DNA from: a virus | Strand: one strand, 5' to 3' | Length of the DNA stretch: 33,245 nucleotides | Virus genome (UHGV): UHGV-0144531 | Shown here: positions 4,356-31,051 of the stretch, piece after piece | Layout of the letters: the number at the start of each line of letters is the position of its first letter | Numbering within the stretch: position 1 is the first letter of the stretch | Translations under genes and position numbers: made by a program | Notes under the pieces: generated by a model | Told to the model about the DNA's origin: nothing | What the model saw: only the letters and a program-made list of their open reading frames with translations | Database searches by the model: none

Positions 4356-4976
4356 ATGAACGACATCAAAACAGCTTACTCTCTCGGTAATGAAGGTATG
4401 TTGATCACTCGCTATACAGATGATGCAAACTTTCACGAAGTGGAAATTAAAGATTATCACGAAGTATTGAAAGATATGGAAGCTGGCGCGTATGACGCTG
4501 ATTTGAATCTGGCGCTACAGATTGTTGATATTGTGATGGGGGCGTCAATCCGCGATTACGTGTCTTTAAGTATGGAAGAAAAAACATCGGTAGCGCGTTA
4601 TGTATTCTCTCTTACTTTTGTGAAGCGCATGGAGGAAGAATTCGGACGCGTACCAGTGCCGGAAGAGGTTGATCCGCTCGCGTTCGGAAGTGCTGTTATT
4701 TTCCCGTTGAACAAGGATCAGCTTTGTAGTGTTTCACTGCATTCTATGCGCGGCCTGATGAAAAATATCTTTGAGGTTAAGATGTTGCAGAAATACATTG
4801 AGGAAGGCCACAAAGAGGAAGAAGTAAAATCGCTCATGCCATTGTTTTACGGTGAAATGGTTGGCAATGATATGCGTGCAAATGATTTCGGCGTACAGGC
4901 GGCTATCGCTGTGCTTAATGACGCACGGAAAAACGCACAGCCGACGCCTGAACAGGGAAAACGTGTACTGCATTAA
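4356..4976 (+). CDS. Hypothetical protein (206 aa)
   Basis: Largest unassigned early ORF; no family recognised from sequence alone. Confidence 0.6.
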   Translation: MNDIKTAYSLGNEGMLITRYTDDANFHEVEIKDYHEVLKDMEAGAYDADLNLALQIVDIVMGASIRDYVSLSMEEKTSVARYVFSLTFVKRMEEEFGRVPVPEEVDPLAFGSAVIFPLNKDQLCSVSLHSMRGLMKNIFEVKMLQKYIEEGHKEEEVKSLMPLFYGEMVGNDMRANDFGVQAAIAVLNDARKNAQPTPEQGKRVLH

Positions 4977-4988
4977 CCGAGTAATTCC

Positions 4989-5038
4989 GATCACATAAAT
5001 ATACATTTTGTATTGTAATTGCATATCCATTTTGTAAG
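4989..5038. promoter_or_regulatory. Recurrent motif cluster: GATCACATAAAT plus two direct copies of CATTTTGTA
   Basis: Intergenic; gatcacataaat at 4989-5000, acattttgtatt at 5003-5014, ccattttgtaag at 5027-5038. Confidence 0.45.
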
Positions 5039-5075
5039 CCGAAATCAAAAGGTTTACGGTGCGGAGGAAGCAAAA

Positions 5076-5294
5076 ATGGAACGCGAATTGATGCTTTATT
5101 GCGTAGAAGGTGGCGTAGGTCACGATGCCTACGTCGCTGGGAAAGGCTATCCAGCCGATGAAGTGCTTTCTAATATGCACTTCCGGGAAAATGAAATCAG
5201 GGTGTCTGTGTGGAAACGGTGCATTGATGGTATTGAGGTTGTAAGTATCGAACGGTATTTAGGCACGTTTGATTATGGTGTTATTGAGGCTTAA
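5076..5294 (+). CDS. Hypothetical protein (72 aa)
   Basis: ATG at 5076 with GGAGGA RBS; track start 5019 would run through the motif cluster. Confidence 0.5.
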   Translation: MERELMLYCVEGGVGHDAYVAGKGYPADEVLSNMHFRENEIRVSVWKRCIDGIEVVSIERYLGTFDYGVIEA

Positions 5295-5781: not shown

Positions 5782-6018
5782 ATGCTTAAGAGCTTTTTTA
5801 ACTGGTTGGGGGCGTGGCTTTTGGCTACGCTTTTTGTTTTCCTGGCGGCCCTGACTGTTATCGGTGTTATTATGCTGGGGGGTATGTTTATTACGTGGTC
5901 GCTGCCTGAATTTAACAACATTGGGAATATTCTTTTTGCAGCCCGCGCTTTATTGGCTGTGAGCGCATTCATTGGTTTTTGCTTGACTGCCGCGCCGGAT
6001 TGGGATGATACATGGTGA
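5782..6018 (+). CDS. Small membrane protein (about 2 TM helices)
   Basis: Hydrophobic stretches (WLGAWLLATLFVFLAALTVIGVIMLGG; ALLAVSAFIGFCL); ATG at 5782 with GAGG RBS. Confidence 0.45.
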   Translation: MLKSFFNWLGAWLLATLFVFLAALTVIGVIMLGGMFITWSLPEFNNIGNILFAARALLAVSAFIGFCLTAAPDWDDTW

Positions 6019-6256
6019 TCCTATGGCTTTATTCAATATGTCAGAGCCGCAATTTAACGCCGTAAAAACTGCCGCCCGCGCGGCGCTTTCGGCCTGCAAA
6101 GCGGAGGTGGAAAAGAACGGCTACAGCGATAAAGCCACGCGGCTGATATTAGACAAGCATTATCGCAAGGTCGCCCCGCTAATCAGTATCGAGCGTTTTG
6201 TCTGGCTGGTGGGGTATTTAAACAACCGATGGGGAACTGATCAGGATTATTTCTAA
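6005..6256 (+). CDS. Hypothetical protein (83 aa; alternative start 6023)
   Basis: ORF; start ambiguous between ATG 6005 and ATG 6023. Confidence 0.45.
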   Translation: MIHGDPMALFNMSEPQFNAVKTAARAALSACKAEVEKNGYSDKATRLILDKHYRKVAPLISIERFVWLVGYLNNRWGTDQDYF

Positions 6257-6265
6257 GGGGGCGTA

Positions 6266-6805
6266 ATGAAAAATGATTACGGCGGCAGCAACACGCCGAA
6301 AGAAATAAAAGACCTATGGCAGACGCCGAAACCTGTTTTTAGAGGAATGGATCTGGAATTCGAATTCGTCGCGGATGTGGCGGCAAACAAGGCAAACGCA
6401 TTAATACCGCGATATATAACCGAAGAAATGGACACGCTCCATTATCCGTGGGGAGCGGTGGCGATGCCTGGTGAGTATGTCTGGATGAATCCGCCATATT
6501 CTAATCCGGGGCCATTCGTTGATAAGGCGGCGCTTGAACATCAACGAAATCACATTGGCTGTGTAATGTTATTGCCCGCTGACATTTCTGTTAACTGGTT
6601 TATGAACGGCGTGGAGACGGCAAACGAATGCCGATTAATTACGCGCGGGCGGCTGGCTTTTATAAATGTCGCGACAGGGAAACCAGCAAGCGGAAACAAT
6701 AAAGGGAGCTTGTTCTTGATCTGGCATCCACGGTGCAGACATGAATGTATTTTCACGCAGATAACACGTAAAGAGCTATACGCGAGAGGCGCAAATAATG
6801 ACTAA
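6266..6805 (+). CDS. Phage Dam-type DNA N6-adenine methyltransferase
   Basis: N-terminal WQTPKPVF and catalytic NPPY motif (VWMNPPYSNPG) as in the phage Dam family; AGGGGG RBS. Confidence 0.75.
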   Translation: MKNDYGGSNTPKEIKDLWQTPKPVFRGMDLEFEFVADVAANKANALIPRYITEEMDTLHYPWGAVAMPGEYVWMNPPYSNPGPFVDKAALEHQRNHIGCVMLLPADISVNWFMNGVETANECRLITRGRLAFINVATGKPASGNNKGSLFLIWHPRCRHECIFTQITRKELYARGANND

Positions 6806-7298
6806 GGCAGCAGATTTATTAAGACTTGCATCAGAAACCATAGAGCAAAGAGGTAAGCAAAACGGCTACGACAAAAAAGAGGAAAAATCAGCGCCAAAAA
6901 TAGCCACTATTTACAACGCTAAGAAGGGGGCAGATTTAACCACGCTTGATGTATTAGATCTGCTAATTTGTCTCAAGGAGGCGCGTTTAGAGGCTATTTT
7001 GAGCAATAACAGCGATCCGACAGACACACTAATTGATTTAATTAGCTATAACGCGCTAAAAGCTGAGCAAATATTAACGGAACGTGAGGAAGAACAAAGA
7101 AAGAAACAGGCTGTTTTTGATATGCCGCTGAATGGTGGATTAATAAAAGATGAAGCTATAACCAGTTGTAAGGGATTGCCGCCTTCTATGCTTAACCCTC
7201 AATGTGGTTGCATTTCAACTCGACTTGATTTGAAGTTTGATAGAGCTGAAGCTATTCGTGATAAGAGGTACGATCCAAATGAAAAGGGTGACAATTGA
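6798..7298 (+). CDS. Hypothetical protein (166 aa)
   Basis: ORF between the two methyltransferase genes; no family recognised. Confidence 0.5.
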   Translation: MTKAADLLRLASETIEQRGKQNGYDKKEEKSAPKIATIYNAKKGADLTTLDVLDLLICLKEARLEAILSNNSDPTDTLIDLISYNALKAEQILTEREEEQRKKQAVFDMPLNGGLIKDEAITSCKGLPPSMLNPQCGCISTRLDLKFDRAEAIRDKRYDPNEKGDN

Positions 7299-7782
7299 CA
7301 GGTTATTAGCCTGCGTTTATGTCGCCGTTTTCGTGATCATCAATCTTATTGTTAACCACTGTGGCCCGTGGGTAATTCCGATCACCACGGTATCCGCAGT
7401 GTGTGTCAATATGATGATCCGTGACTTCTTGTTATATGACGGCGGCCTGAAATGGTCGGCTACAACATGCGCCGCCGCTGGCGCAATTACGGTGCTGATA
7501 AACTATGATGCAGGAATGGTGGCGATCGCGTCATTCGTTGCGGTTGTTTCCGGTGCGCTTATTTCTGGCGGCGTTTACCGTGTTTTACCTGGTGATTTCG
7601 ATTCGAAACGCTGGCCTGCAAATATAGCTTCAGCTATCGGCGATGCGTTAATTTTTCCCACGCTATCGTTTATGGCATTTATGCCGGAAATATCAGCTAT
7701 TCAATTCATCTCAAAAATGGCAGCGGTAACGGTGATCACTATCATCATGCGCCGCTATTTTACGTTTGAGGGCAGAAAATGA
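7279..7782 (+). CDS. Integral membrane protein (multi-TM), function unknown
   Basis: Several hydrophobic helices; weak, unverified resemblance to YhhQ/DUF165-type transporters. Confidence 0.45.
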   Translation: MKRVTIDRLLACVYVAVFVIINLIVNHCGPWVIPITTVSAVCVNMMIRDFLLYDGGLKWSATTCAAAGAITVLINYDAGMVAIASFVAVVSGALISGGVYRVLPGDFDSKRWPANIASAIGDALIFPTLSFMAFMPEISAIQFISKMAAVTVITIIMRRYFTFEGRK

Positions 7783-8537
7783 GCGGGCTTAAAAATTGGG
7801 TGGTGTGGTCGTTGTACGACGGCAGCGGGTACGCCGTTAAAGATTGGGCTGACGCTGGCTATAAGTGTTATTGCTTCAACTATGACGGCGCTAACCACGG
7901 CGACTATGAAGGCGTAAAAATCATTCATCCGAATATTGAATACGTTAACGTATGGATTAACAGCCATTTCCTGGTGATGTTCTCCCCTGAATTGTCTGTT
8001 TATCCAGAGCCTGACATTATTCTGGCCTTCCCGCCATGCGACCATCTAGCCGTGTCCGGCGCTCGTTGGTTTACCAGCAAGCGTGAAAAAGATCCTGACT
8101 TCCAGGTGAAGGCGGCATATAACGCAAAACTGGTAGAAACGCTGGCTGACATGTATCACGTCCCGTGGATGGTGGAAAATCCGGTTGGCGCACTGTCAAC
8201 GTTATGGCGTAAGCCGGATTTTATCTTCAATCCGTGCGCTTACGGTGGATACCTGCCTGAAGATGATAAACATCCTGCTTTTCCTGATGTTTACCCGCCG
8301 CGCGACGCGTACACGAAGAAAACTTGTATCTGGTGCGGCAACGGATTTAAACAGCCGCTTTTTAGACCTGTAGATCTTAACTCTGATGATAACCCTGGCT
8401 GGGCGAAAACTGGAGGCCGGACGAAACGAACAAAGATGATCCGCTCGCTAACGCCGCGCGGCTTCGCCATCGCTGTATTCCTGGCTAACGACCGGGCAAT
8501 CACGCGGACTACGCTTAACCGCGTTTTACCGGAGTGA
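7779..8537 (+). CDS. Putative DNA (cytosine-5) methyltransferase
   Basis: Motif IV-like PPC (AFPPCDHLAVSG) and motif VI-like ENx (MVENPVG); 252 aa; GAGGG RBS. Confidence 0.55.
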   Translation: MSGLKNWVVWSLYDGSGYAVKDWADAGYKCYCFNYDGANHGDYEGVKIIHPNIEYVNVWINSHFLVMFSPELSVYPEPDIILAFPPCDHLAVSGARWFTSKREKDPDFQVKAAYNAKLVETLADMYHVPWMVENPVGALSTLWRKPDFIFNPCAYGGYLPEDDKHPAFPDVYPPRDAYTKKTCIWCGNGFKQPLFRPVDLNSDDNPGWAKTGGRTKRTKMIRSLTPRGFAIAVFLANDRAITRTTLNRVLPE

Positions 8538-8568
8538 AGTTTACGGAATGGCGTCATTGCGTGATGAA

Positions 8569-8637
8569 GATCACATAATGGCGCTTTACGCCTTGTTTGT
8601 GTGTATCCATTTTGTATACTTCAAGCAAACAAAATGC
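8569..8637. promoter_or_regulatory. Recurrent motif cluster: GATCACATAA plus CCATTTTGTATA and AACAAAATGC
   Basis: Intergenic, upstream of the ninG operon; gatcacataa 8569-8578, ccattttgtata 8607-8618, aacaaaatgc 8628-8637. Confidence 0.45.
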
Positions 8638-8696
8638 TCTTTAAAAATCCGGTAACGCTGAAATGCGTAGAAATCACCTGAAAAGGAGAGAGCATT

Positions 8697-10798: not shown

Positions 10799-10998
10799 TG
10801 AAACAACAAGAGATAAACATGAAAAAAGTGATTATTCTTTTTGAAGATTATAACGGTGATGCATGGTGCAAGTATTTAAGCGGTGTTGAAGCACGGTTGG
10901 CGCTAACGTTTATTGCCGCACTGGATGAAGGGGATTTTAACGCTATTCCGGTTAAGCCAGTAGAAATCTATCGTCGCGAGGTGAAGGATGAAGCCTAA
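10798..10998 (+). CDS. Hypothetical protein (66 aa)
   Basis: ORF; ATG overlaps the Q stop (TAATG). Confidence 0.45.
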   Translation: MKQQEINMKKVIILFEDYNGDAWCKYLSGVEARLALTFIAALDEGDFNAIPVKPVEIYRREVKDEA

Positions 10999-11257
10999 AT
11001 TAAAAGAACATCTATTCGCAAAGCTGGTTAATAATCTGACATTAACGGCGCGTGTGTGCAGTGATACGCAACAATTAGGGTCGTGGATAGTAAGGGATTT
11101 AAGAAAATACATCGAGCCAGGCGGGCCAGGTGACGAGATGACTATGGACAAGGCCATCAAGCGCCGTTCGGCTGATTGGTCAGTAAGTAACACAGGATTA
11201 ACCGGATACATCGAAGGCTACAACGACTGCTTACAGGATCATAGCGATGGCAAGTAA
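10988..11257 (+). CDS. Hypothetical protein (89 aa)
   Basis: ORF in co-directional string. Confidence 0.45.
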   Translation: MKPKLKEHLFAKLVNNLTLTARVCSDTQQLGSWIVRDLRKYIEPGGPGDEMTMDKAIKRRSADWSVSNTGLTGYIEGYNDCLQDHSDGK

Positions 11258-11555
11258 AGACCTACACTTGAACCTGAAAGGGGAATATTTCCACGCCATC
11301 CGGGCGGGAAAGAAGGTGGAGGAATACCGACTTTATAATGAATACTGGCGTAAACGCCTGGAGGGGCGGGAATATGAACGCCTGATCATTAAGCTGTGGT
11401 ATCCAGCCAGCCACGAAGCGCACCGGAACATAAACCTGCCTTATTTCGGGTACGAAGTAAAAACTATCACGCATCCATTATTCGGCCCTGATCCTGTTAA
11501 GGTATTCGCAATTAAATGTGATGTGAATTGGATGTTAAGGTGGGGGGAGCAATGA
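11247..11555 (+). CDS. Hypothetical protein, possibly ASCH/PUA-like
   Basis: N-terminal LHLNLKGEYFHAIRAGKKVEEYR resembles ASCH/DUF3850-type cores; from memory only. Confidence 0.4.
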   Translation: MASKDLHLNLKGEYFHAIRAGKKVEEYRLYNEYWRKRLEGREYERLIIKLWYPASHEAHRNINLPYFGYEVKTITHPLFGPDPVKVFAIKCDVNWMLRWGEQ

Positions 11556-11767
11556 AAAAAGCTGGCCTATCAATTAGCCGTGTATTGTGCGGTGACGAAA
11601 ACGAGATCCGCATAGAAATTAAATTTAGCACAGGTAAAGAGATAATCCTTTACACGACACCTGAAAACCTGACGCTGGCGCTTACTGGTAAATCTGAAAC
11701 GCCGTGCGACGTCCGGTTGCGCAATATTGAAATTAAGGAATTAAGGAAGGTGAAAGATGAAAAGTAG
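11552..11767 (+). CDS. Hypothetical protein (71 aa)
   Basis: ATG 11552 preceded by GGGGGGAG RBS; track start 11528 would overlap upstream gene. Confidence 0.4.
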   Translation: MKKAGLSISRVLCGDENEIRIEIKFSTGKEIILYTTPENLTLALTGKSETPCDVRLRNIEIKELRKVKDEK

Positions 11768-11957
11768 AATGAAACGCATGGTAAGAGCTTACGATAAGGC
11801 TTTAATGGTTTTTGATGATTTGCGACGCAATAAGCGTGAGCGTCGTAAATGGGCGCGTTTATTCGCGAAAGAATGGCACGAAGACGATGCGACAATCGAC
11901 TGTCAAAAAGACGCTGACGAATTAGCTGACGATAACGTTTATTATATGATGTGGTGA
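11757..11957 (+). CDS. Hypothetical protein (66 aa)
   Basis: ORF in co-directional string. Confidence 0.4.
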   Translation: MKSRMKRMVRAYDKALMVFDDLRRNKRERRKWARLFAKEWHEDDATIDCQKDADELADDNVYYMMW

Positions 11958-11961
11958 CAAC

Positions 11962-12327
11962 ATGCAAATAATCATTGATTACCTTTGCCATGCAGCAAAT
12001 ACACTTTTCGGTTTTTATCAACAACCTTTCCTTAAAGAGTGGGATTCGATGTTAAACGATATCCTCGACAAAGGATTAATAATGGAGGTTGACGAGCTTA
12101 CAATCAAAATTAATTATGAAGGTGAAGAATATCAAATTTGGGTGGGTAATAGATGGTATTCATACGGTCATATTTATTCAATTGGTGGTAAGTTCATTAA
12201 AAGAAACCAGGAATTCAGACCGCGCTTCCGCACAATGCGCCGACTACATAACCTGCATATGAATCTATTTGAAGACCAGGAAGCACGGGAACTATTCAAG
12301 ATCTACGGAGATAAATCATGGAGCTAA
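11962..12327 (+). CDS. Hypothetical protein (121 aa)
   Basis: ORF; AT-rich by eye. Confidence 0.45.
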   Translation: MQIIIDYLCHAANTLFGFYQQPFLKEWDSMLNDILDKGLIMEVDELTIKINYEGEEYQIWVGNRWYSYGHIYSIGGKFIKRNQEFRPRFRTMRRLHNLHMNLFEDQEARELFKIYGDKSWS

Positions 12328-12548
12328 AAATCTGGCAGGCTATCGACGTAGTTGATAATGAGTTAAGTATGTTTGCCACTGACGGAAAGCGCGCGGTGAT
12401 CGCCACATGGACGCGTAACCATGATGATATCGCTTTTCGTCGCAAGGCTGCGGAGTGGCTTTTCTCTGATGGCGGCTACACGATGAACATCGCCCAGCTT
12501 GCCAGAATGAAGGATGAAAAGCTGGTAGACAGCTACACAACTGCATAG
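12318..12548 (+). CDS. Hypothetical protein (76 aa)
   Basis: ORF in co-directional string. Confidence 0.45.
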   Translation: MELKIWQAIDVVDNELSMFATDGKRAVIATWTRNHDDIAFRRKAAEWLFSDGGYTMNIAQLARMKDEKLVDSYTTA

Positions 12549-12558
12549 CGGGGTAAAT

Positions 12559-12792
12559 ATGCGTATCTATGAACACAAGCGGGATAAAACCCGCTTTTTT
12601 GTTCGTGCTGGCGTGGCGTACCAGTATCACGAATGTGGATATATTGAGGCGCTTGCTTACGACCTGGATTTCGAACAAGAAAAAGAATGGTTTGACTTTA
12701 AGATTTACCGGAAGCGCAAGCCAACGCGCGACGAGCGCCACGCTATCCGTGATTTTCTAATCAGCATTGACCGCTGGGAGGCAGAAGAATGA
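12559..12792 (+). CDS. Hypothetical protein (77 aa)
   Basis: ORF in co-directional string. Confidence 0.45.
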   Translation: MRIYEHKRDKTRFFVRAGVAYQYHECGYIEALAYDLDFEQEKEWFDFKIYRKRKPTRDERHAIRDFLISIDRWEAEE

Positions 12793-13082
12793 GAACGAAG
12801 AAAGTGGCAGATCAGAAAGCGTTAGTTATCGCTACAACGGACGTATCGTTATTCACGAAGGGCGAAGAAATAGATCTTAAATTGCTTTTCGGTATGTTTG
12901 AGCCACACGAAAAGCCGTGGTTTGTTCATGAAGACAAACAAGGCAATATGCGCGTAGTAGTGCCGGACAAAAACAGCGACATATTTTTTGCTATTCCAGA
13001 CCCGTTGCATGACGGAGAAATGCTGGCGGTATTGCTTATCGCTGATGCTGTTACTTACAAGGGAAAGAAATATGAAAGTTAA
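12789..13082 (+). CDS. Hypothetical protein (97 aa)
   Basis: ORF in co-directional string. Confidence 0.45.
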   Translation: MRTKKVADQKALVIATTDVSLFTKGEEIDLKLLFGMFEPHEKPWFVHEDKQGNMRVVVPDKNSDIFFAIPDPLHDGEMLAVLLIADAVTYKGKKYES

Positions 13083-13299
13083 ATTCTTGCACGATCACGG
13101 CTACCCGTCATTGAAACAGGTTGTTGGTAAGGTCGTTAATGTCGTTCATAGCGATGAGATTACTTGCATGATTAATGGTGCTGATCTCATTGCCGCTGGT
13201 GCTGATGACCATTACATAAATCCGGCATGGTCGTATACGTTCAGCCTGGGCGACTTCGTTGGCGATAAGGGACGCGGGCTGGAAGTAGTCGAGGGTTAA
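13072..13299 (+). CDS. Hypothetical protein (75 aa)
   Basis: ATG 13072 (MKVKFLHDHG); the longer track ORF from 12988 overlaps the upstream gene. Confidence 0.4.
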   Translation: MKVKFLHDHGYPSLKQVVGKVVNVVHSDEITCMINGADLIAAGADDHYINPAWSYTFSLGDFVGDKGRGLEVVEG

Positions 13300-13303
13300 T
13301 ATT

Positions 13304-13552
13304 ATGGACGTTTACGAGGATGTTTGCCTGGCACCTTCATCTTATAGCTTTTATTTTCTGATAAATGGAAAGGCTTATAGATGCGATTCTGACGGGGTGA
13401 GAGAAGAAAAGCTGTTTTGCACTAAAGGATACCTGGATGATTTGGTTTTTGCCGGGATATTTCGTAAACGCCCGGCTAACCTGGAAGAAGAAATGCTGAT
13501 CGAGGTAATTAAAAATGAAAATCAAGGTAAGTTATTTCCGGGCGAAAGATAA
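13304..13552 (+). CDS. Hypothetical protein (82 aa)
   Basis: ORF in co-directional string. Confidence 0.4.
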   Translation: MDVYEDVCLAPSSYSFYFLINGKAYRCDSDGVREEKLFCTKGYLDDLVFAGIFRKRPANLEEEMLIEVIKNENQGKLFPGER

Positions 13553-13766
13553 GGCAACTGGAAAGCGGATGGCGATCCTGGTTAACGAGGCAGGATATAT
13601 GTTTGTCCTGTACCCGTGGTGCATAGCTAGCCATAACGATTATTATCGCCGTCACGCTGCGCGGAGTGCGGTAGGGATGAAGGGTTGGCAACCTCGCGAC
13701 ATGGAAAACTATTGTGAATGGAAATTAGTGGCAAAATACACGGTCGATTATAAAGGGGTTTTCTGA
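13515..13766 (+). CDS. Hypothetical protein (83 aa)
   Basis: ORF in co-directional string. Confidence 0.4.
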   Translation: MKIKVSYFRAKDKATGKRMAILVNEAGYMFVLYPWCIASHNDYYRRHAARSAVGMKGWQPRDMENYCEWKLVAKYTVDYKGVF

Positions 13767-13978
13767 TGCAAGTTAAATGCTCATACTCAAGCAATGACAG
13801 TGTTTTCACGATTGGGAGTATTTATGACGTTCACATCGTTTATGGCAATGAAGCACACACAATGAGTAATTGCCTTGCCTTGATTGATAATCATGACGAA
13901 ATATGGGTATTCAGGCCGAGCTATGAAGGCGGTGAAATATCCGGTGTAGGTTTTGCTGCCAGCTTTGAACGTTATTAA
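13766..13978 (+). CDS. Small protein, paralog family member A (70 aa)
   Basis: Shares C.YS...F..G.IY.V and D..G..W.F motifs with the next three ORFs. Confidence 0.45.
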   Translation: MQVKCSYSSNDSVFTIGSIYDVHIVYGNEAHTMSNCLALIDNHDEIWVFRPSYEGGEISGVGFAASFERY

Positions 13979-13988
13979 AGGGGCAACA

Positions 13989-14246
13989 ATGAAACATTTA
14001 TATTTTGAGGTATTGCAGACGCGCGACCGCAATATTTTTGAAGAAGGGAAGATCTATTGCGGCGTTCAACTCCACGGCGCACCGGGCGGTGATGGTGCAA
14101 TGGCGATAACTGGCGATGATGATAAAGTTTATTTCGCTTATGTTAGCCATATCAATAACGCCGCTGGTTTGTATATTTATCGCATAGTGCATGATTTCCG
14201 TGAGATCGCGGAGTTTTGCGCCCGCGAAGGCAGTAAACCGGAATAA
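13989..14246 (+). CDS. Small protein, paralog family member B (85 aa)
   Basis: ATG 13989 with AAAGGGG RBS; FEEGKIYCGV and GDDDKVYFAY motifs. Confidence 0.45.
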   Translation: MKHLYFEVLQTRDRNIFEEGKIYCGVQLHGAPGGDGAMAITGDDDKVYFAYVSHINNAAGLYIYRIVHDFREIAEFCAREGSKPE

Positions 14247-14256
14247 GTGAGGTGCT

Positions 14257-14496
14257 ATGAATCGGAAACATAGATACCAGTGCACATACTCACGATGCAG
14301 CGCGTTTTTTAAGAATGGCAAGATCTACGAGGTTGACGCGGCATTGGTTGACGCAAAGGATCAGGAATATATTCATGCCATTACTGACGACCAGGGGCAG
14401 TTATGGCGATTTTATAAGATGGGTTGTGGCACGGCGCTTGTTTATGCGCGTGCTGGTGGTGGTGCTTTTGCTGCGTTTTCGTATGTAGGGGTATGA
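14257..14496 (+). CDS. Small protein, paralog family member C (79 aa)
   Basis: CTYSRCSAFFKNGKIYEVDA and TDDQGQLWRFY motifs. Confidence 0.45.
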   Translation: MNRKHRYQCTYSRCSAFFKNGKIYEVDAALVDAKDQEYIHAITDDQGQLWRFYKMGCGTALVYARAGGGAFAAFSYVGV

Positions 14497-14717
14497 AAAT
14501 GATTTTAACGTGTAACGAATCGAAATTGGGCTGTTTTGAGGAAGGCGTACAGTACACGGCTGAAAAACCGATGGGATTGTCTCCTAAATTTCCGTTTATC
14601 GTCGTGACTGACACTTACGGTCACTTATGGTATGCAGGGCCGCTAGGCGGTATTGGTCGTTATGTTGTCCGTAGTTCGGATGGGGCGATGAAGGTTACTT
14701 TTACGGAAGAAGCATAA
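14493..14717 (+). CDS. Small protein, paralog family member D (74 aa)
   Basis: ATG 14493 with AGGGG RBS; LTCNESKLGCFEEGVQYTAE and TDTYGHLWYAG motifs. Confidence 0.45.
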   Translation: MKMILTCNESKLGCFEEGVQYTAEKPMGLSPKFPFIVVTDTYGHLWYAGPLGGIGRYVVRSSDGAMKVTFTEEA

Positions 14718-14777
14718 ATGTGATCTACCCTTCAAAGTTTACAAAATGGCATTGTTCTGGTGGCGCCATTTTGTTAT
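14714..14777. promoter_or_regulatory. Palindromic element TTTACAAAATGG-N16-CCATTTTGTTAT with adjacent GATCACATTT (reverse orientation)
   Basis: Intergenic; aaatgtgatc 14716-14725; tttacaaaatgg 14738-14749; ccattttgttat 14766-14777; TATAAA-like -10 inside the right arm. Confidence 0.5.
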
Positions 14778-14815
14778 AAAGAAGCTGAAGAGAGAACGAT
14801 GCGGAGGGTAGAAAA

Positions 14816-15088
14816 ATGAAACGCTGGATTAACGAAGAAACAAAAGCCCGCTTCAATGCAATTTGGGATCTGATTGAAAAAGAGGACGGCGTTTCTAGTC
14901 CCTACCTGAACAATCTTGAGTTCCACTATGTAGAAGCGATGAACGCAGAGCATGACCACCAAGTCGGTGCTGATGAATTCGCCAAAAAATACGGCTTCGA
15001 TGATGCAAACCATATGATTAACAACGTGGTGATGCAGGCAGAGGAAGACTACGAATGCAAATCACTTGAATTCGCACGTATGGCATAA
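14816..15088 (+). CDS. Hypothetical protein (90 aa)
   Basis: First ORF downstream of the palindromic element. Confidence 0.45.
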   Translation: MKRWINEETKARFNAIWDLIEKEDGVSSPYLNNLEFHYVEAMNAEHDHQVGADEFAKKYGFDDANHMINNVVMQAEEDYECKSLEFARMA

Positions 15089-15098
15089 GGGGGAAACC

Positions 15099-15239
15099 AT
15101 GAACGCTAACGCTAAATATCCGGCCTGGGTTTTCGAACTGTACGCAAGATACTTTGAATTACTGGCACAAGGTGAAGAAGCATTAAGCATTGACGAGTAC
15201 GCGGAGTGCTTAGGGTTTAAAGGAGGCGAAGAAGCATAA
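15099..15239 (+). CDS. Small hypothetical protein (46 aa)
   Basis: ATG with AAGGGGG RBS; below ORF-track cutoff. Confidence 0.3.
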   Translation: MNANAKYPAWVFELYARYFELLAQGEEALSIDEYAECLGFKGGEEA

Positions 15240-15282
15240 AACACGGGGCAGGATGGCCCCATCAAATCAGAAGGGTGTAATC

Positions 15283-15582
15283 ATGAAAAGCGCTAAATTT
15301 ATTGCTTGCTGTTTTGTTGAAGTTCCTAACGATGATGTTTTCTGTAATTATGAATTTAAAGACAGCTTAGGCAGATCTCACATTGTTGTTGGCAAACGTG
15401 GTGACTGGTTATATATCACTGATGGAGACAGGATCTTCACTAAAAACCAGTTGTTAATAATAAAGTCAAAAAATGATGAAATACAGGTCGGTATTATGGG
15501 GATCATAAGTTATCACGCCAGTTTATTGTTAAAACACGATGTGGTAAATAAAGCGCGTAGCTTACCTGGTGCTGAATTTTAA
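15283..15582 (+). CDS. Hypothetical protein (99 aa)
   Basis: ATG 15283 with AAGGGTG RBS; visibly AT-rich coding sequence. Confidence 0.45.
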   Translation: MKSAKFIACCFVEVPNDDVFCNYEFKDSLGRSHIVVGKRGDWLYITDGDRIFTKNQLLIIKSKNDEIQVGIMGIISYHASLLLKHDVVNKARSLPGAEF

Positions 15583-15605
15583 TTCCTTACGAAGGAGAAT
15601 AATCA

Positions 15606-15929
15606 ATGTCTAAATTTATCAGTGTTAAAGTTTTCCGTGGATCTTTTCCAGAAGATAAAGAAATTGGACAATTCGCAGGTAAACGCGGCGCATGTTTCCG
15701 TGTGGCTACTGAAGACGACGCGCACGTTAAACGCTTCCACGTATCTGAACCGCCTTTTGACGCAGACCATCTTGAAGACCTGGATAGAATTAAAAGCCTA
15801 GTTTTTGCCTATCTGATGTTCCAGGGTATCGCTGATATGGAAGTGGAATTGCTTGGCGCTGAACTGGTTGCAGAATACAAAATGACTGAAGCAGAAAACA
15901 GAGGGGTTGAAATTGAGCGCATCAAATAA
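15606..15929 (+). CDS. Hypothetical acidic protein (107 aa)
   Basis: ORF with AAGGAG RBS; Asp/Glu-rich. Confidence 0.45.
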   Translation: MSKFISVKVFRGSFPEDKEIGQFAGKRGACFRVATEDDAHVKRFHVSEPPFDADHLEDLDRIKSLVFAYLMFQGIADMEVELLGAELVAEYKMTEAENRGVEIERIK

Positions 15930-16164
15930 GCTGTATAAAGTCAGATGTAAACGCGAATACCCTGGCTTTACGATTGGTTGCGAATATCTGGGCCATATTG
16001 GGTACGGCCCTTTCGGTGAGTTGGGAATGAATACGATTGACGACGACGGCGACAGCAGGACGCTCGATCTTGATACGGATGACTTCGAATATATCCCTCC
16101 AGTTACTTACCGTGCCGTAGATGATTTCCTGGCTGAACAAGAAGATGATGAAGAGGATGATTAA
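15907..16164 (+). CDS. Small protein with highly acidic C-terminal half (85 aa)
   Basis: C-terminal 45 residues roughly 40 percent Asp/Glu, ending DDFLAEQEDDEEDD. Confidence 0.45.
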   Translation: MKLSASNKLYKVRCKREYPGFTIGCEYLGHIGYGPFGELGMNTIDDDGDSRTLDLDTDDFEYIPPVTYRAVDDFLAEQEDDEEDD

Positions 16165-16166
16165 CT

Positions 16167-16307
16167 ATGGATGACGAATACGTTAACAATTTTATTGTTA
16201 TGTTTCTTAGTGAGAACTGGCGCATGTTTGAACATTATTGTTTTGAGCGCGGGGAAAATGCTGAAGAAATCTATCAATATTTAGGCGGGGAGAAAGAGGA
16301 TGATTGA
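16167..16307 (+). CDS. Small hypothetical protein (46 aa)
   Basis: ATG immediately after upstream stop; below ORF-track cutoff. Confidence 0.3.
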   Translation: MDDEYVNNFIVMFLSENWRMFEHYCFERGENAEEIYQYLGGEKEDD

Positions 16308-16500
16308 ATGTCTTATCTTTGCTGTATTTCTCCTTTATATCGCTGGCGCTATCCTGATGTCTTGTTTCATCAAATGTAACGATCTCGATCGTGGTGGCCT
16401 TGAGATTCCTTTCTGGCCTGTAGCGGTGTTTATCGCTTTCTTCGGTGCAACGCTAGTGCAGATTAAGCGAGCCATTAAGGAGCGTAAAAATGGGAAATAG
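16300..16500 (+). CDS. Small membrane protein (66 aa, 2 TM helices)
   Basis: Two hydrophobic segments (LIFAVFLLYIAGAILMSCFI; FWPVAVFIAFFGATLV) and basic C-terminus. Confidence 0.4.
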   Translation: MIECLIFAVFLLYIAGAILMSCFIKCNDLDRGGLEIPFWPVAVFIAFFGATLVQIKRAIKERKNGK

Positions 16501-16714
16501 CGACCATCAATATGACGGCGTTTATCAGTCATTGGTGTCACGCGCTTATTATCGCCTTGAAGGTGAACACGTAATGATGCGATCACGCCAGTTTGAACCG
16601 TGGCATGAAACGGTTTTACCTGTGACAGCGAAAGAAGTTATCACGATGTTTAATCACGGACATTGGAGCAAGATTGGCGATATTAAGTTCAGGATGTTTA
16701 AAGAGGGCGGTTAA
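16490..16714 (+). CDS. Hypothetical protein (74 aa)
   Basis: ORF in co-directional string. Confidence 0.4.
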   Translation: MGNSDHQYDGVYQSLVSRAYYRLEGEHVMMRSRQFEPWHETVLPVTAKEVITMFNHGHWSKIGDIKFRMFKEGG

Positions 16715-16897
16715 ATGATTGAAGATGGTATATACGCCGTGAACCTCATTGATGAAATGTTTTACCGCGTGGAGGGTAATGATATTCGTATCAGTATCGA
16801 TGGTGGCGAGTGGAAAGAGCCATTCATGGATATGACGCGGGAAATAATTGAAATCATGCTTTATAACGGCGACGTGGTGAAGGTTAGCGACCTGTGA
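16715..16897 (+). CDS. Hypothetical protein (60 aa)
   Basis: ORF in co-directional string. Confidence 0.4.
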   Translation: MIEDGIYAVNLIDEMFYRVEGNDIRISIDGGEWKEPFMDMTREIIEIMLYNGDVVKVSDL

Positions 16898-17070
16898 ACG
16901 AGATCGAAGACGGCATCTATTTGCATAAGGTATTTAACATCGTCTATTTACTTAAAGGTAATAAGGTGATGATAAGACCTGATGACGATCCACATTGGGA
17001 ATCAAGCGACATGGATCGGTGGCATATGCAAATGTTGTTTGATAATGGCCTGATATACAAAACTGCGTAA
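16894..17070 (+). CDS. Hypothetical protein (58 aa, GTG start)
   Basis: GTG overlapping upstream stop; shows the same EDGIY / RISIDGGEW-like pattern as 16715-16897. Confidence 0.25.
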   Translation: MNEIEDGIYLHKVFNIVYLLKGNKVMIRPDDDPHWESSDMDRWHMQMLFDNGLIYKTA

Positions 17071-17077
17071 GCCGTAT

Positions 17078-17106
17078 TTGTAGAGCGTAAACAAACGGAT
17101 TAAAAT
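17078..17106 (+). promoter_or_regulatory. Sigma70-like promoter, candidate late promoter (PR'-like)
   Basis: -35 TTGTAG (17078-17083), 17-bp spacer, -10 TAAAAT (17101-17106); a terminator lies about 30 nt downstream and the lysis cassette follows. Confidence 0.45.
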
Positions 17107-17134
17107 ATTTCCTAACAATGCGAAATTGTAATTA

Positions 17135-17157
17135 CCCGGCCCCCGCGCCGGGTTTTT
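17135..17157 (+). terminator. Rho-independent terminator (tR'-like) upstream of the holin gene
   Basis: cccggc-ccccgc-gccggg hairpin followed by ttttt. Confidence 0.6.
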
Positions 17158-17177
17158 GCTTTGTTGGAGGTAAATCT

Positions 17178-17378
17178 ATGTTCGACAGAATACGGGAGGC
17201 GTGCGCGTATGTGACTGGGGCCGTAACTGCTTTTTTCGGCGCGATAACCATCAATGACATTGCCGTCTTTGTGGGTATCTTATCAACCGTAGGCACATTT
17301 GCCGTTAATTATTACTTCAAATCACAGGAGAACAAGCGGGCGCAAGAGGAACACGACGCGCGAATGGGGAATAAGTAA
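17178..17378 (+). CDS. Holin (class II / pinholin-like, 66 aa)
   Basis: ATG 17178 with GGAGG RBS; two hydrophobic helices and charged C-terminus (YYFKSQENKRAQEE) like phage 21-type S; directly precedes the endolysin. Confidence 0.7.
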   Translation: MFDRIREACAYVTGAVTAFFGAITINDIAVFVGILSTVGTFAVNYYFKSQENKRAQEEHDARMGNK

Positions 17379-30391: not shown

Positions 30392-31051
30392 TTAATTCCA
30401 GTTGCAAGCGTTTTTCACTTTGTCGATGTGGTTATAAAGACCATCAATGTTAAACACTGCTTTCTCAATGTCGCCAGCTTCCGGCACTACTTCAATGATA
30501 AATTGTTTTTCGTTAACCAGTTTTTTAATCATTGGAATGGCTTTTTTGCCGTTCCATAATCCAAGAGCTTTATAGTTAGTTGACCGACTCCATTCAGTAG
30601 CTACAGCTTTGTGATCGCCGATCTGGTAGTTAATATAAGTAGTGTCCCCAGCGTCAGTTACATGGTTTGACCATGCTACGAACATTTTTGTTTTATTACC
30701 CTGGCAAGCGATTGTTAATACAGGTTTGTTTTCATCCCGTGCTTTCAGTGTAGGGAAAGCATCAAGACTTCCGCTGAAATGTTCTGCTTTCACGAAAAGG
30801 AACACGTTTTTTGTGTCCTGCATATCATCTTTTCTTTCGACCACAAGCCACTGTTTACCAGCTTTTTCTTTTGCTAACTGTGCCTCATATGCGGCTTGTT
30901 TTGCTTGTTGTTCTGCAAGCCATTTAGCATTTTTCTCTGCTAATGCTTGTTGTTCTTGAGTGGTCACTATAGGCGCTTTTTCATTATCCTCATTGCAACC
31001 AACCAGACCCAATACCGCCGCAATCATTGCCACTTTTGCTAACCGTTTCAT
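30392..31051 (-). CDS. Predicted lipoprotein (219 aa)
   Basis: Signal peptide with lipobox (MKRLAKVAMIAAVLGLVGC); Ala/Gln/Lys/Glu-rich linker then globular domain of about 130 aa; GGTGGG RBS; minus strand. Confidence 0.7.
   Translation of the reverse strand: MKRLAKVAMIAAVLGLVGCNEDNEKAPIVTTQEQQALAEKNAKWLAEQQAKQAAYEAQLAKEKAGKQWLVVERKDDMQDTKNVFLFVKAEHFSGSLDAFPTLKARDENKPVLTIACQGNKTKMFVAWSNHVTDAGDTTYINYQIGDHKAVATEWSRSTNYKALGLWNGKKAIPMIKKLVNEKQFIIEVVPEAGDIEKAVFNIDGLYNHIDKVKNACNWN

Follow-up and report, generated by a model that had tools for sequence, protein, structure and literature searches.

DpdA swaps guanine in DNA for a 7-deazaguanine. Every known 7-deazaguanine DNA modification needs a DpdA (PMC10516641). 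Escherichia coli YhhQ is described, in the citation of Zallot et al. 2017 given by PMC6884629, as a transporter of the queuosine precursors preQ0 and preQ1. Phages encode homologues of this permease, and an earlier statement is that these are not correlated with any group (PMC6884629). A related case is phage CAjan, in which yhhQ lies in the 7-deazaguanine cluster (PMC6884629, PMC7544227); the deletion of this gene left DNA modification unaffected in rich medium (PMC7544227). An orthologous counterpart of the cassette described below, with 80-98% amino acid identity, is gp30-gp33 of phage mEp021 (GenBank MH706966), the products of which are labeled putative Dam, hypothetical protein, putative membrane protein (6 TM), and putative DNA cytosine methyltransferase. 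The record and the accompanying paper (PMC11893012) give the membrane protein no VUT (Vut_1)/YhhQ assignment, and a 7-deazaguanine connection is absent from the discussion. The same four genes are already annotated in the mEp021 record; the new part of the present study is the family assignment of the membrane protein.

The DNA analyzed here (hereafter, the window) is a stretch of 33,245 nt from the virus genome UHGV-0144531, and its source is a temperate E. coli phage of the mEp021-like (mEpimmI) group. Four overlapping genes on the plus strand fill positions 6266-8537, with the ORFs lying where the original prediction had placed them (6266-6805, 6798-7298, 7237/7279-7782, and 7779-8537). The first two genes, encoding a Dam-type methylase and a DUF6378 protein, overlap by 8 nt, the DUF6378 and membrane protein genes overlap by 20 nt, and an ATGA is common to the end of the membrane protein gene and the start of the C5-like methylase gene. 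Each of the four starts has its own Shine-Dalgarno sequence. They are best explained as tightly packed, translationally coupled early genes forming an accessory operon of the nin region, between ipe and NinF/NinG/RusA/Q. The gene upstream in the same string (6005..6256, plus strand; phrog_303) encodes a homologue of Ipe ("inducer of pleiotropic effects") with 93% amino acid identity to that of mEp021; it represents context and lies outside the modification genes. On the downstream side, a non-coding spacer of approximately 160 nt (8538..8696, plus strand) closes the four-gene string before NinF. The mEp021 record annotates the terminator TERM_4 at the matching position, and according to the mEp paper, nutR2 lies on the downstream side of the methyltransferase gene (PMC11893012). 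A simple terminator scan found none in this spacer, and its only Rfam match was below the threshold. No close relatives emerged from a scan of bacterial genomes, as the collection scanned contains a single genome for each species.

The first gene (6266..6805, plus strand) encodes an orphan phage Dam-type DNA N6-adenine methyltransferase of 179 aa. The original prediction had named it as such, and the profile searches confirmed this: the protein exceeded the curated cutoffs of PF05869 (E 1.2e-50; 172 bits, cutoff 28.1) and of the TIGR01712 equivalog (138.9 bits, cutoff 97.05), it matched phrog_111 (E 1.7e-62), and the catalytic motif NPPY occupies residues 75-78. It was also the sole cassette protein matched in PADLOC, as an "orphan methyltransferase" (E 8e-24). 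Its dN/dS against the mEp relatives was 0.04-0.085.

The second gene (6798..7298, plus strand) encodes a DUF6378 protein of 166 aa (PF19905, E 4.3e-7, 30.6 bits, cutoff 27.1; phrog_9871 and phrog_474). The protein has a conserved N-terminal domain of approximately 95 aa with four predicted helices, followed by a C-terminal tail that is variable and dispensable; the loci L087 and L106 retain the N-terminal domain alone. This gene was the least constrained in the cassette (dN/dS 0.16-0.25). An AF2 model from a shallow alignment (pLDDT 59.6) had four N-terminal helices and a disordered tail, and a Foldseek search of the PDB with this model returned only generic helical bundles (E > 1). A sequence search of the PDB yielded no match. 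The product appears to be a small helical protein, to which these searches assigned no function.

The last gene (7779..8537, plus strand) encodes a compact enzyme of 252 aa with the C5-cytosine methyltransferase fold. It matched phrog_757 ("DNA methyltransferase") at E 5e-85. The motifs YDGSG (residues 13-17), PPC (85-87), and ENP (133-135) are counterparts of the C5 methyltransferase motifs I (FxGxG), IV (PC, with the catalytic Cys), and VI (ENV), and G15, S16, P86, C87, E133, N134, and P135 were invariant across 29 homologues. No match to Pfam or NCBIfam, PF00145 included, was obtained at E <= 0.1 or 1; a precomputed PF00145 match exists in one homologue that is 57% identical. A profile search of the PDB reached DNMT3B at only E 0.22, with motifs I and IV aligned with those of DNMT3B, and the structure model has the C5 methyltransferase fold. 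The expectation of a C5-cytosine methyltransferase-like enzyme was borne out by the conservation of the catalytic Cys87 and Glu133 and by this modeled fold, and the protein is probably an orphan DNA m5C methylase. Unlike the C5 methyltransferases of PF00145, such as M.HhaI and the catalytic domain of DNMT3A/B, the enzyme lacks a match to this family, spans only approximately 230-250 aa, and has a minimal target-recognition region. The small "C5 methylases" of Drexlerviridae, which are phrog_757, are the closest known kind alongside the PF00145 enzymes. We also considered whether the protein is a disguised DpdA. This was ruled out because BLASTP found no homology to the DpdA-like neighbors of other VUTs.

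No restriction endonuclease gene adjoins the cassette, the neighbors being the ipe homologue upstream and NinF/NinG/RusA downstream; therefore, both methylases are orphans, in agreement with the original prediction. The Dam-type and C5-fold enzymes would methylate the replicating phage DNA, which would then resist host restriction. Judging from family membership, the resistance of phage DNA to host restriction is the most likely role of the two methylases, and the "broad anti-restriction self-methylation" originally proposed is plausible. In the BASEL study, the presence of such methylase genes in Drexlerviridae was not related in any simple way to restriction resistance (PMC8594841). As a clue to methylase specificity, we searched for the avoidance of GATC and CCWGG; both sites occurred at the Markov expectation. 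These methylases, already annotated in mEp021, are routine anti-restriction equipment of phages. The locus is for the most part ordinary, and the modest puzzle that it contains is a transporter without a partner, which is puzzling because DpdA is its near-constant partner in other phages and is absent here.

The membrane protein gene (7279..7782, plus strand) encodes 167 aa from the ATG at 7279, which is preceded by an AGAGG ribosome-binding site; translation may alternatively start at a TTG further upstream, at 7237, which would give 181 aa. The match to phrog_4899 (E 1.6e-45) begins at the ATG. The protein contains at least five hydrophobic segments, and the mEp021 record notes 6 TM. A weak resemblance to YhhQ had been predicted, with an HMM search against this family as the check. 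The protein itself did not match PF02592 (Vut_1) at E <= 0.1; however, its homologues did. Among 138 representatives collected with phmmer (E 1e-43 to 1e-6), 61 were aligned, and 58 of these matched PF02592. One homologue is fused to QueF. The alignment of the protein with YhhQ of E. coli K-12 in hhalign had a probability of 93.2% (E 3.1e-7, 141 columns), and the resemblance is real on both counts. A profile search of the PDB for a solved YhhQ structure gave only spurious matches to Tim22 (E 0.29). The protein is very probably a short, divergent member of the Vut_1/YhhQ family, with a membership that is transitive through its homologues.

The relatives of this permease are tightly associated with DpdA. 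A DpdA/TGT gene adjoins the VUT gene in 77 of 80 IMG/VR metagenomic loci, comprising 75 with an adjacent DpdA-like ORF on the same strand and two with a TGT+DUF6884 ORF, while the other three are cut by contig ends; since these loci came from a single peptide pattern and include redundant entries, this proportion overstates the number of independent observations. In total, IMG/VR contains more than 541 VUT loci. A phrog_887/DpdA-like gene also abuts the VUT gene in all six isolates checked, namely, PEAT2, the protein of which was given as DpdA by Hutinet et al., AB3P2, Opt-719, LHE71, Phc, and Tbat1_6. In the window, tblastn and an HMM of 78 DpdA sequences (--max) detected nothing at E <= 10. 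The same searches detected nothing in the mEp021 and MagusPhagus loci, in L087-L089, or in positions 1-50000 of mEp010, a range that covers all but the last 3.8 kb (the end of the tail fiber). A default search with this HMM (E <= 0.01) was also negative for the flanks in 46 mEp-like loci and for L144. Pfam searches revealed no TGT (PF01702) in window ORFs of at least 120 aa or in five left-arm ORFs of mEp010, and no FolE, QueD, QueE, or QueC in window ORFs of at least 120 aa. These results uphold the earlier observation that a transglycosylase or Que gene is absent from the window. The suggested link to nucleobase modification is supported solely by the relatives that other phages carry, which are partners of DpdA; in the lineage of the window, DpdA is gone and conserved polar residues of the permease have changed.

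In a neighbor-joining tree, the VUTs without DpdA grouped together as the sister of the DpdA-linked VUTs of Drexlerviridae. The members of this clade are the mEp021-like phages, a more distant relative that shares the cassette, another temperate lineage, and an approximately 128-kb contig (L144). The distant relative keeps the order Dam-DUF6378-VUT-C5 with only 53% identity in VUT, and the orphan VUT has been retained in lineages diverged to 46-53% identity. No neighbor family common to three of the four orphan lineages was found, and the DUF6378 profile gave hhalign probabilities below 1% against the neighbors of the orphan VUTs in L088 and L144. Within the mEp021-like group, the VUT gene had the lowest dN/dS of the cassette (0.027-0.050 at dS 0.21-0.45), and 45 of 46 related genomes carry it at full length with 95-99% identity. 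In one genome (L142), a deletion has joined the 5' end of Dam to VUT residues 79-167. The window VUT retains the family-invariant residues Y14, N22, G29, R48, D49, N115, D122, F131, Q142, and K146. However, the orphan clade replaces residues that are invariant in the DpdA-linked VUTs (D44N, N36T, H/Q52 to hydrophobic residues, G132, and G149), and the aspartate at position 44 is shared by E. coli YhhQ. These substitutions at invariant positions suggest that the substrate, or even transport itself, may have changed.

The arrangement of the cassette does not imply a joint function of the methylases and the membrane protein. The C5-like gene was lost or broken in eight of 44 mEp021-like genomes by deletion, invasion by an HNH gene, or an internal deletion, whereas 45 of 46 genomes have an intact transporter gene. 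With good confidence, we consider the permease to be functional, given its low dN/dS, its full length across genomes, and the gene order kept in the distant relative, and to be independent of the C5 enzyme, given that VUT is intact in the genomes with a lost or broken C5-like gene. We propose that DpdA was lost in the lineage of the window and that the permease was kept under strong purifying selection. The permease may still import a base similar to preQ0/preQ1 or another small heterocycle of this kind, which would serve enzymes of the host, with Tgt and the Q-tRNA pathway as the simplest case, and it would act without a need for the neighboring methylases. Our overall reading, to which we assign a probability of approximately 0.5, is that the cassette combines two orphan anti-restriction methylases with an independently useful importer of a base or precursor, which probably feeds host pathways. 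The narrower proposal that the imported compound is a queuosine precursor for host use is tentative. Several points weigh against our reading. The host already encodes YhhQ and can make Q de novo through a complete pathway, so a second importer would bring no obvious benefit, and the deletion of yhhQ in CAjan left DNA modification in rich medium unaffected. There was no excess of Q-dependent NAU codons (U-ending fractions: Asn 0.43, Asp 0.56, His 0.41, and Tyr 0.50), no tRNA gene was found near the cassette, and a search for a preQ1 riboswitch near the cassette gave no Rfam match at the gathering score and two chance-level matches at E <= 1.

Among the other readings, one takes the membrane gene to be the decaying relic of an earlier DpdA-VUT module, now without a function; this would account for the absence of DpdA and for the Dam-VUT fusion in L142. 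We rejected it as highly improbable on the basis of the dN/dS of 0.03-0.05 with dS reaching 0.45 and the intact gene in all but one of the 46 genomes; its retention in lineages at 46-53% identity points in the same direction. The same strong constraint along the whole length of VUT counts against a different proposal, in which the protein was exapted and, instead of transporting queuosine precursors, imports another small molecule or serves in the membrane as an effector (of superinfection exclusion or host physiology, for instance). The replacement of the conserved acidic D44 by Asn and of the polar N36 and H/Q52 is consistent with such a change, as are the presence of YhhQ in the host and the lack of a shared neighbor family in three of the four orphan lineages. 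However, most of the family-invariant residues are retained, and a PADLOC search found VUT to be similar to no known exclusion or defense protein. We regard exaptation as rather unlikely, although it is the strongest of the competing explanations.

The two remaining proposals retain a role for an imported base in the absence of DpdA. The clade may mark a DpdA-independent use of this base, either in DNA modification by an unrecognized enzyme or in the deliberate reprogramming, by a temperate gut phage, of the queuosine status of host tRNA; if so, a new substrate would explain the D44N, N36T, and H52 changes. We consider this to be improbable. The version in which the transporter feeds an unrecognized DNA hypermodification made by the cassette itself is slightly more doubtful still. 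The reaction would be performed by the C5 methyltransferase-fold enzyme with an imported or non-SAM cofactor, or DpdA would be replaced by the DUF6378 protein or by some other small protein of the phage. Against this, VUT stays intact in the eight genomes in which the C5-like gene is lost or broken, the DUF6378 protein evolves the fastest in the cassette and nothing similar flanks the other orphan VUTs, and no TIM-barrel or TGT-like protein was found in the scanned sequences; moreover, the known 7-deazaguanine DNA modifications all need DpdA (PMC10516641).

The present results place a "hypothetical membrane protein" of a prevalent group of human gut coliphages as a YhhQ-family permease. The relatives of this permease are near-obligate partners of DpdA, and the lineage of the window kept it after the loss of DpdA. 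The earlier statement that phage YhhQ homologues correlate with no group (PMC6884629) may be sharpened accordingly: the short VUT subfamily is tightly linked to DpdA, with one coherent clade as the exception. E. coli K-12 and the mEp phages provide a tractable case in which to explore what a phage gains from a lone importer of the queuosine-precursor type.

Compared with E. coli YhhQ (COG1738, PF02592), the window protein is homologous over nearly the whole length, both are multi-TM proteins, and they share the D-x-x-F-x-x-x-A-F segment and the A-x-A-S helix. However, the window protein is phage-encoded, has 167 aa rather than 221 aa, and carries Asn where the xDLxxR motif of YhhQ has a conserved Asp. 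The DpdA-VUT modules of PEAT2 (gp18-gp19), Acinetobacter phage AB3P2, and the Drexlerviridae phages Opt-719, LHE71, and Phc contain VUTs of the same short subfamily, with 28-36% identity to the window VUT (tblastn E 1e-10 to 1e-23), and are likewise embedded among early and DNA-metabolism genes. In these modules, DpdA abuts VUT, whereas the clade of the window has no DpdA and the flanks of VUT in the window are occupied by the DUF6378 protein and the C5 methyltransferase-like enzyme.

Between positions 6000 and 9000, the window shared 86-91% nucleotide identity with phages of the mEpimmI group (mEp010, mEp554, mEp044, mEp021, mEp515, mEp013, and MagusPhagus), which are temperate, Nus-dependent coliphages. 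The mEp021 genes gp29 to gp33 are annotated as ipe, a putative DNA N-6 adenine methyltransferase, a hypothetical protein, a putative membrane protein (6 TM), and a putative DNA cytosine methyltransferase, respectively, and are followed by NinF, NinG, a RusA-type resolvase, and Q. The gene order in the window was identical; therefore, the four-gene arrangement originally predicted at 6266-8537 is real. The cassette is encoded on the + strand and comprises Dam (6266-6805), a DUF6378 protein (6798-7298), the membrane protein, hereafter the permease (7279-7782), and a C5-like enzyme (7779-8537). The PHROG profile of the permease begins at the ATG at 7279, although translation might instead begin at an in-frame TTG at 7237. 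Stops overlap the next starts within the cassette, and a Shine-Dalgarno sequence was present at each of the four starts. A non-coding spacer of approximately 160 nt lies 3' of the C5-like gene. A simple scan of this spacer detected no terminator; a terminator is predicted at the matching position in mEp021, and nutR2 was located at the equivalent position (PMC11893012). The same string of genes includes, directly 5' of Dam, a homologue (6005-6256) of mEp021 Ipe ("inducer of pleiotropic effects"); Ipe was tied to the haemolytic phenotype that mEp021 lysogens show (PMC11893012).

Other features of the window were noted. A conserved 206-aa early protein (4356-4976), hypothetical in mEp021 (gp25) and mEp010, had no Pfam or PADLOC match. 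From Q to the lysis genes (10800-17300) there is a long series of very small + strand ORFs, which is unusual for a location 3' of the late-gene antiterminator; the equivalent region of mEp010 has approximately 25 genes, each encoding a hypothetical protein of 30-130 aa. The tail-gene region contains, on the other strand (30392-31051, - strand), an ORF of 219 aa that matched the VasI/EvfG family of type VI secretion proteins (PF11319, E 2.5e-16). The kilobase in which this ORF lies has the lowest GC content of the window (0.395), GC skew and AT skew are both negative there, and the ORF looks like a moron from a bacterial T6SS locus. Across the whole window, CTAG was strongly under-represented (11 observed vs 36 expected) and GATATC, GTAC, and GGCC moderately so, with GATC and CCWGG at expectation.

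The Dam-type N6-adenine methylase proposed for the first gene was unambiguous at the level of sequence: the protein matched PF05869 (E 1.2e-50), scored above the equivalog cutoff of TIGR01712, carries NPPY at residues 75-78, and was classed by PADLOC as an orphan methyltransferase. The 252-aa C5-like protein had no match in Pfam or NCBIfam. It matched phrog_757 "DNA methyltransferase" (E 5e-85) and had 2764 homologues, mostly phage proteins of 227-260 aa; several are named DNA cytosine methyltransferase by NCBI, and one has a PF00145 match. Four blocks were invariant in 29 homologues: motif I (xDGSG), motif IV (PPC), motif VI (ENP), and, towards the C terminus, TPRG. Motifs I and IV of the family profile aligned with their DNMT3B counterparts, with an E value of only 0.22. 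A confident AF2 model (pLDDT 87.6) retrieved DNMT3A/B catalytic domains in Foldseek (E 4e-7). On the basis of these matches, names, motifs, and the model, the protein is a compact C5-MTase-fold enzyme with intact catalytic Cys and Glu, which agrees with the original prediction; its likeliest activity would be methyl transfer to DNA cytosine. Since no restriction gene adjoins the cassette, both methylases are orphans, as had been proposed. By standard reasoning, both may modify phage DNA against restriction. In the BASEL study (PMC8594841), such genes bore no simple relationship to restriction-modification resistance in Drexlerviridae. In the DUF6378 protein, four predicted helices form a conserved N-terminal domain, and the tail is variable and dispensable; structural and sequence searches with the protein returned no match.

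A weak resemblance of the permease to YhhQ-type transporters had also been suspected. The protein had no direct Pfam match, and a word-indexed search returned close relatives only. An exhaustive phmmer search retrieved 138 cluster representatives at E <= 1e-3 (25 at E <= 1e-10). PF02592 (Vut_1) was matched by 58 of 61 aligned homologues (best E 8e-14), one of the 61 having a QueF-like domain, and a profile built from the 61-sequence alignment matched E. coli K-12 YhhQ (b3471) with a probability of 93.2% (E 3.1e-7). The resemblance is thus real, the HMM check being negative for the protein directly and positive through its homologues and the profile match to YhhQ, and we assign the permease to the YhhQ/VUT family on sequence grounds. 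Some VUT homologues of approximately 295-306 aa (P0159, P0167, P0173, P0174, P0176, P0187, P0188, and P0194) have an extra region of approximately 140 aa without a Pfam match, and VUT forms the N-terminal half in most of them. Two others are fused, one with a QueF-like domain and one with DUF5020. Such fusions could hint at the substrate.

Tblastn against isolated phages detected permease homologues in Drexlerviridae, Pectobacterium phage PEAT2, and an Acinetobacter Obolenskvirus, among others, with identities of 28-36%; some carry the annotation "VUT family protein". In all six isolates inspected, the VUT gene abuts a phrog_887 "queuine tRNA-ribosyltransferase" of approximately 245-275 aa. 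Hutinet et al. listed the PEAT2 protein as DpdA; their table has no YhhQ entry for PEAT2. DpdA is the transglycosylase that exchanges guanine in DNA for a 7-deazaguanine. Among 80 IMG/VR VUT loci, a partly redundant set obtained from the family alignment with one peptide pattern, a DpdA-like ORF directly adjoins VUT on the same strand in 75, usually overlapping by 3-42 nt; two have a single TGT (PF01702) + DUF6884 protein upstream, and the remaining three end at contig edges. Given this adjacency, the short phage VUT is normally one half of a DpdA-VUT module, by which a 7-deazaguanine base is taken up and then placed in DNA. In two IMG/VR loci (L042, 163-1440, and L043), a 425-aa protein directly 5' of VUT has a TGT-like region (PF01702, E 1e-5) and a C-terminal DUF6884 (E 3e-44), and may be a fused DpdA variant.

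No DpdA was detected at E <= 10 by tblastn with three DpdA-like proteins or by a 78-sequence HMM (--max) in the window, the mEp021 and MagusPhagus loci, the first 50 kb of mEp010, or the retrieved loci L087-L089. A default HMM search at E <= 0.01 found none in 46 further mEp021-like loci or locus L144. Pfam scans covering every window ORF of 120 aa or more, together with the left arm of a relative, revealed no TGT or Que genes and returned only cI, Erf, SSB, NinB, DnaB, NinG, RusA, Q, lysis, and structural proteins. The earlier statement that the window has no transglycosylase or Que gene was upheld within the scope of these searches. Outside the mEp group, the nearest relatives of the permease are also without DpdA. 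One contig, at 53% VUT identity, encodes Dam, DUF6378 (N-terminal domain only), VUT, and the C5-like enzyme, then NinG, RusA, and Q; a second temperate lineage (46%) has a YunG-like gene, a 75-aa ORF, VUT, two phrog_2510 paralogues, and an N6_N4 methylase; and in a contig of approximately 128 kb, the orphan VUT gene follows DNA ligase. No neighbour family was common to the three orphan-VUT lineages compared. In a neighbour-joining tree, the DpdA-less VUTs formed one clade, nested among DpdA-linked sequences as the sister of Drexlerviridae VUTs; this topology, from a tree without support values, fits a single loss of the DpdA partner.

The permease showed the lowest dN/dS among eight genes compared with three mEp relatives (0.027-0.050; dS 0.21-0.45); values were 0.04-0.085 for Dam, 0.07-0.14 for the C5-like gene, and 0.16-0.25 for DUF6378. 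A full-length permease (95-99% identity) was present in 45 of 46 mEp021-like IMG/VR genomes. The sole exception was L142, in which a deletion fuses the Dam 5' end to VUT residues 79-167 (4923-5267, protein P0009) and the DUF6378 gene is gone. Of the 44 genomes that could be assessed, just 36 had an intact C5-like gene: it was cleanly deleted in L138, carried an in-frame internal deletion removing PPC and ENP in L133, L134, and L136, and was frameshifted in L097 and L132, which could be assembly errors. In L101 (5501-6028) and L109, a 175-aa HNH_3 homing-endonuclease gene (PF13392, E 9e-18) replaced the C5-like gene except for a remnant of its last 27 codons. These patterns indicate that selection acts on the permease itself and that it can do without the C5-like enzyme. 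The selection data contradict a decaying remnant, which we regard as highly improbable. We also doubt that the cassette itself makes a cryptic DNA hypermodification.

The analysis established gene content, family and fold assignments, the absence of DpdA from the sequence that was searched, the selection on the genes, and the patterns across the population. We tentatively propose that the permease would take up a preQ0/preQ1-like base or a similar heterocycle for use by host enzymes, most simply Tgt and Q-tRNA. Hutinet et al. proposed a host-use role for phages with Q-pathway genes but without DpdA. However, the host encodes its own YhhQ, a yhhQ deletion in CAjan left DNA modification unaffected (PMC7544227), and neither Q-codon bias in the window nor a riboswitch was found. 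Exaptation of the permease to another substrate or role is possible, though unlikely, and residue differences bear on it. Four orphan VUTs were compared with DpdA-linked VUTs, among them those of the Drexlerviridae sister group. The orphan sequences shared replacements at six otherwise invariant positions: N36T, I41V, D44N, H/Q52 (to hydrophobic), G132 (to M, S, or L), and G149 (to A, T, or S). Asp44 of DpdA-linked VUTs, which is Asn in the orphan clade, corresponds to the Asp in "ATDLTVR" of YhhQ. Y14, N22, G29, R48, D49, N115, D122, F131, Q142, and K146 are retained. Such a combination is consistent with a membrane protein that still works but may have changed its substrate or coupling with the loss of DpdA, and preQ0/preQ1 as the cargo of the proposed import for host enzymes is less certain because of these substitutions.

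Both methylases are of known kinds and were annotated before, and public annotation already covers the cassette except for the identity of the membrane protein. The present study newly assigned the mEp "membrane protein" to the YhhQ/VUT family, revealed that the short VUT subfamily almost always adjoins DpdA, and identified a DpdA-less clade that is coherent, under strong constraint, and marked by signature substitutions. The known counterpart is E. coli K-12 YhhQ, an experimentally characterised "queuosine precursor transporter", to which the window protein is homologous over 141 columns.
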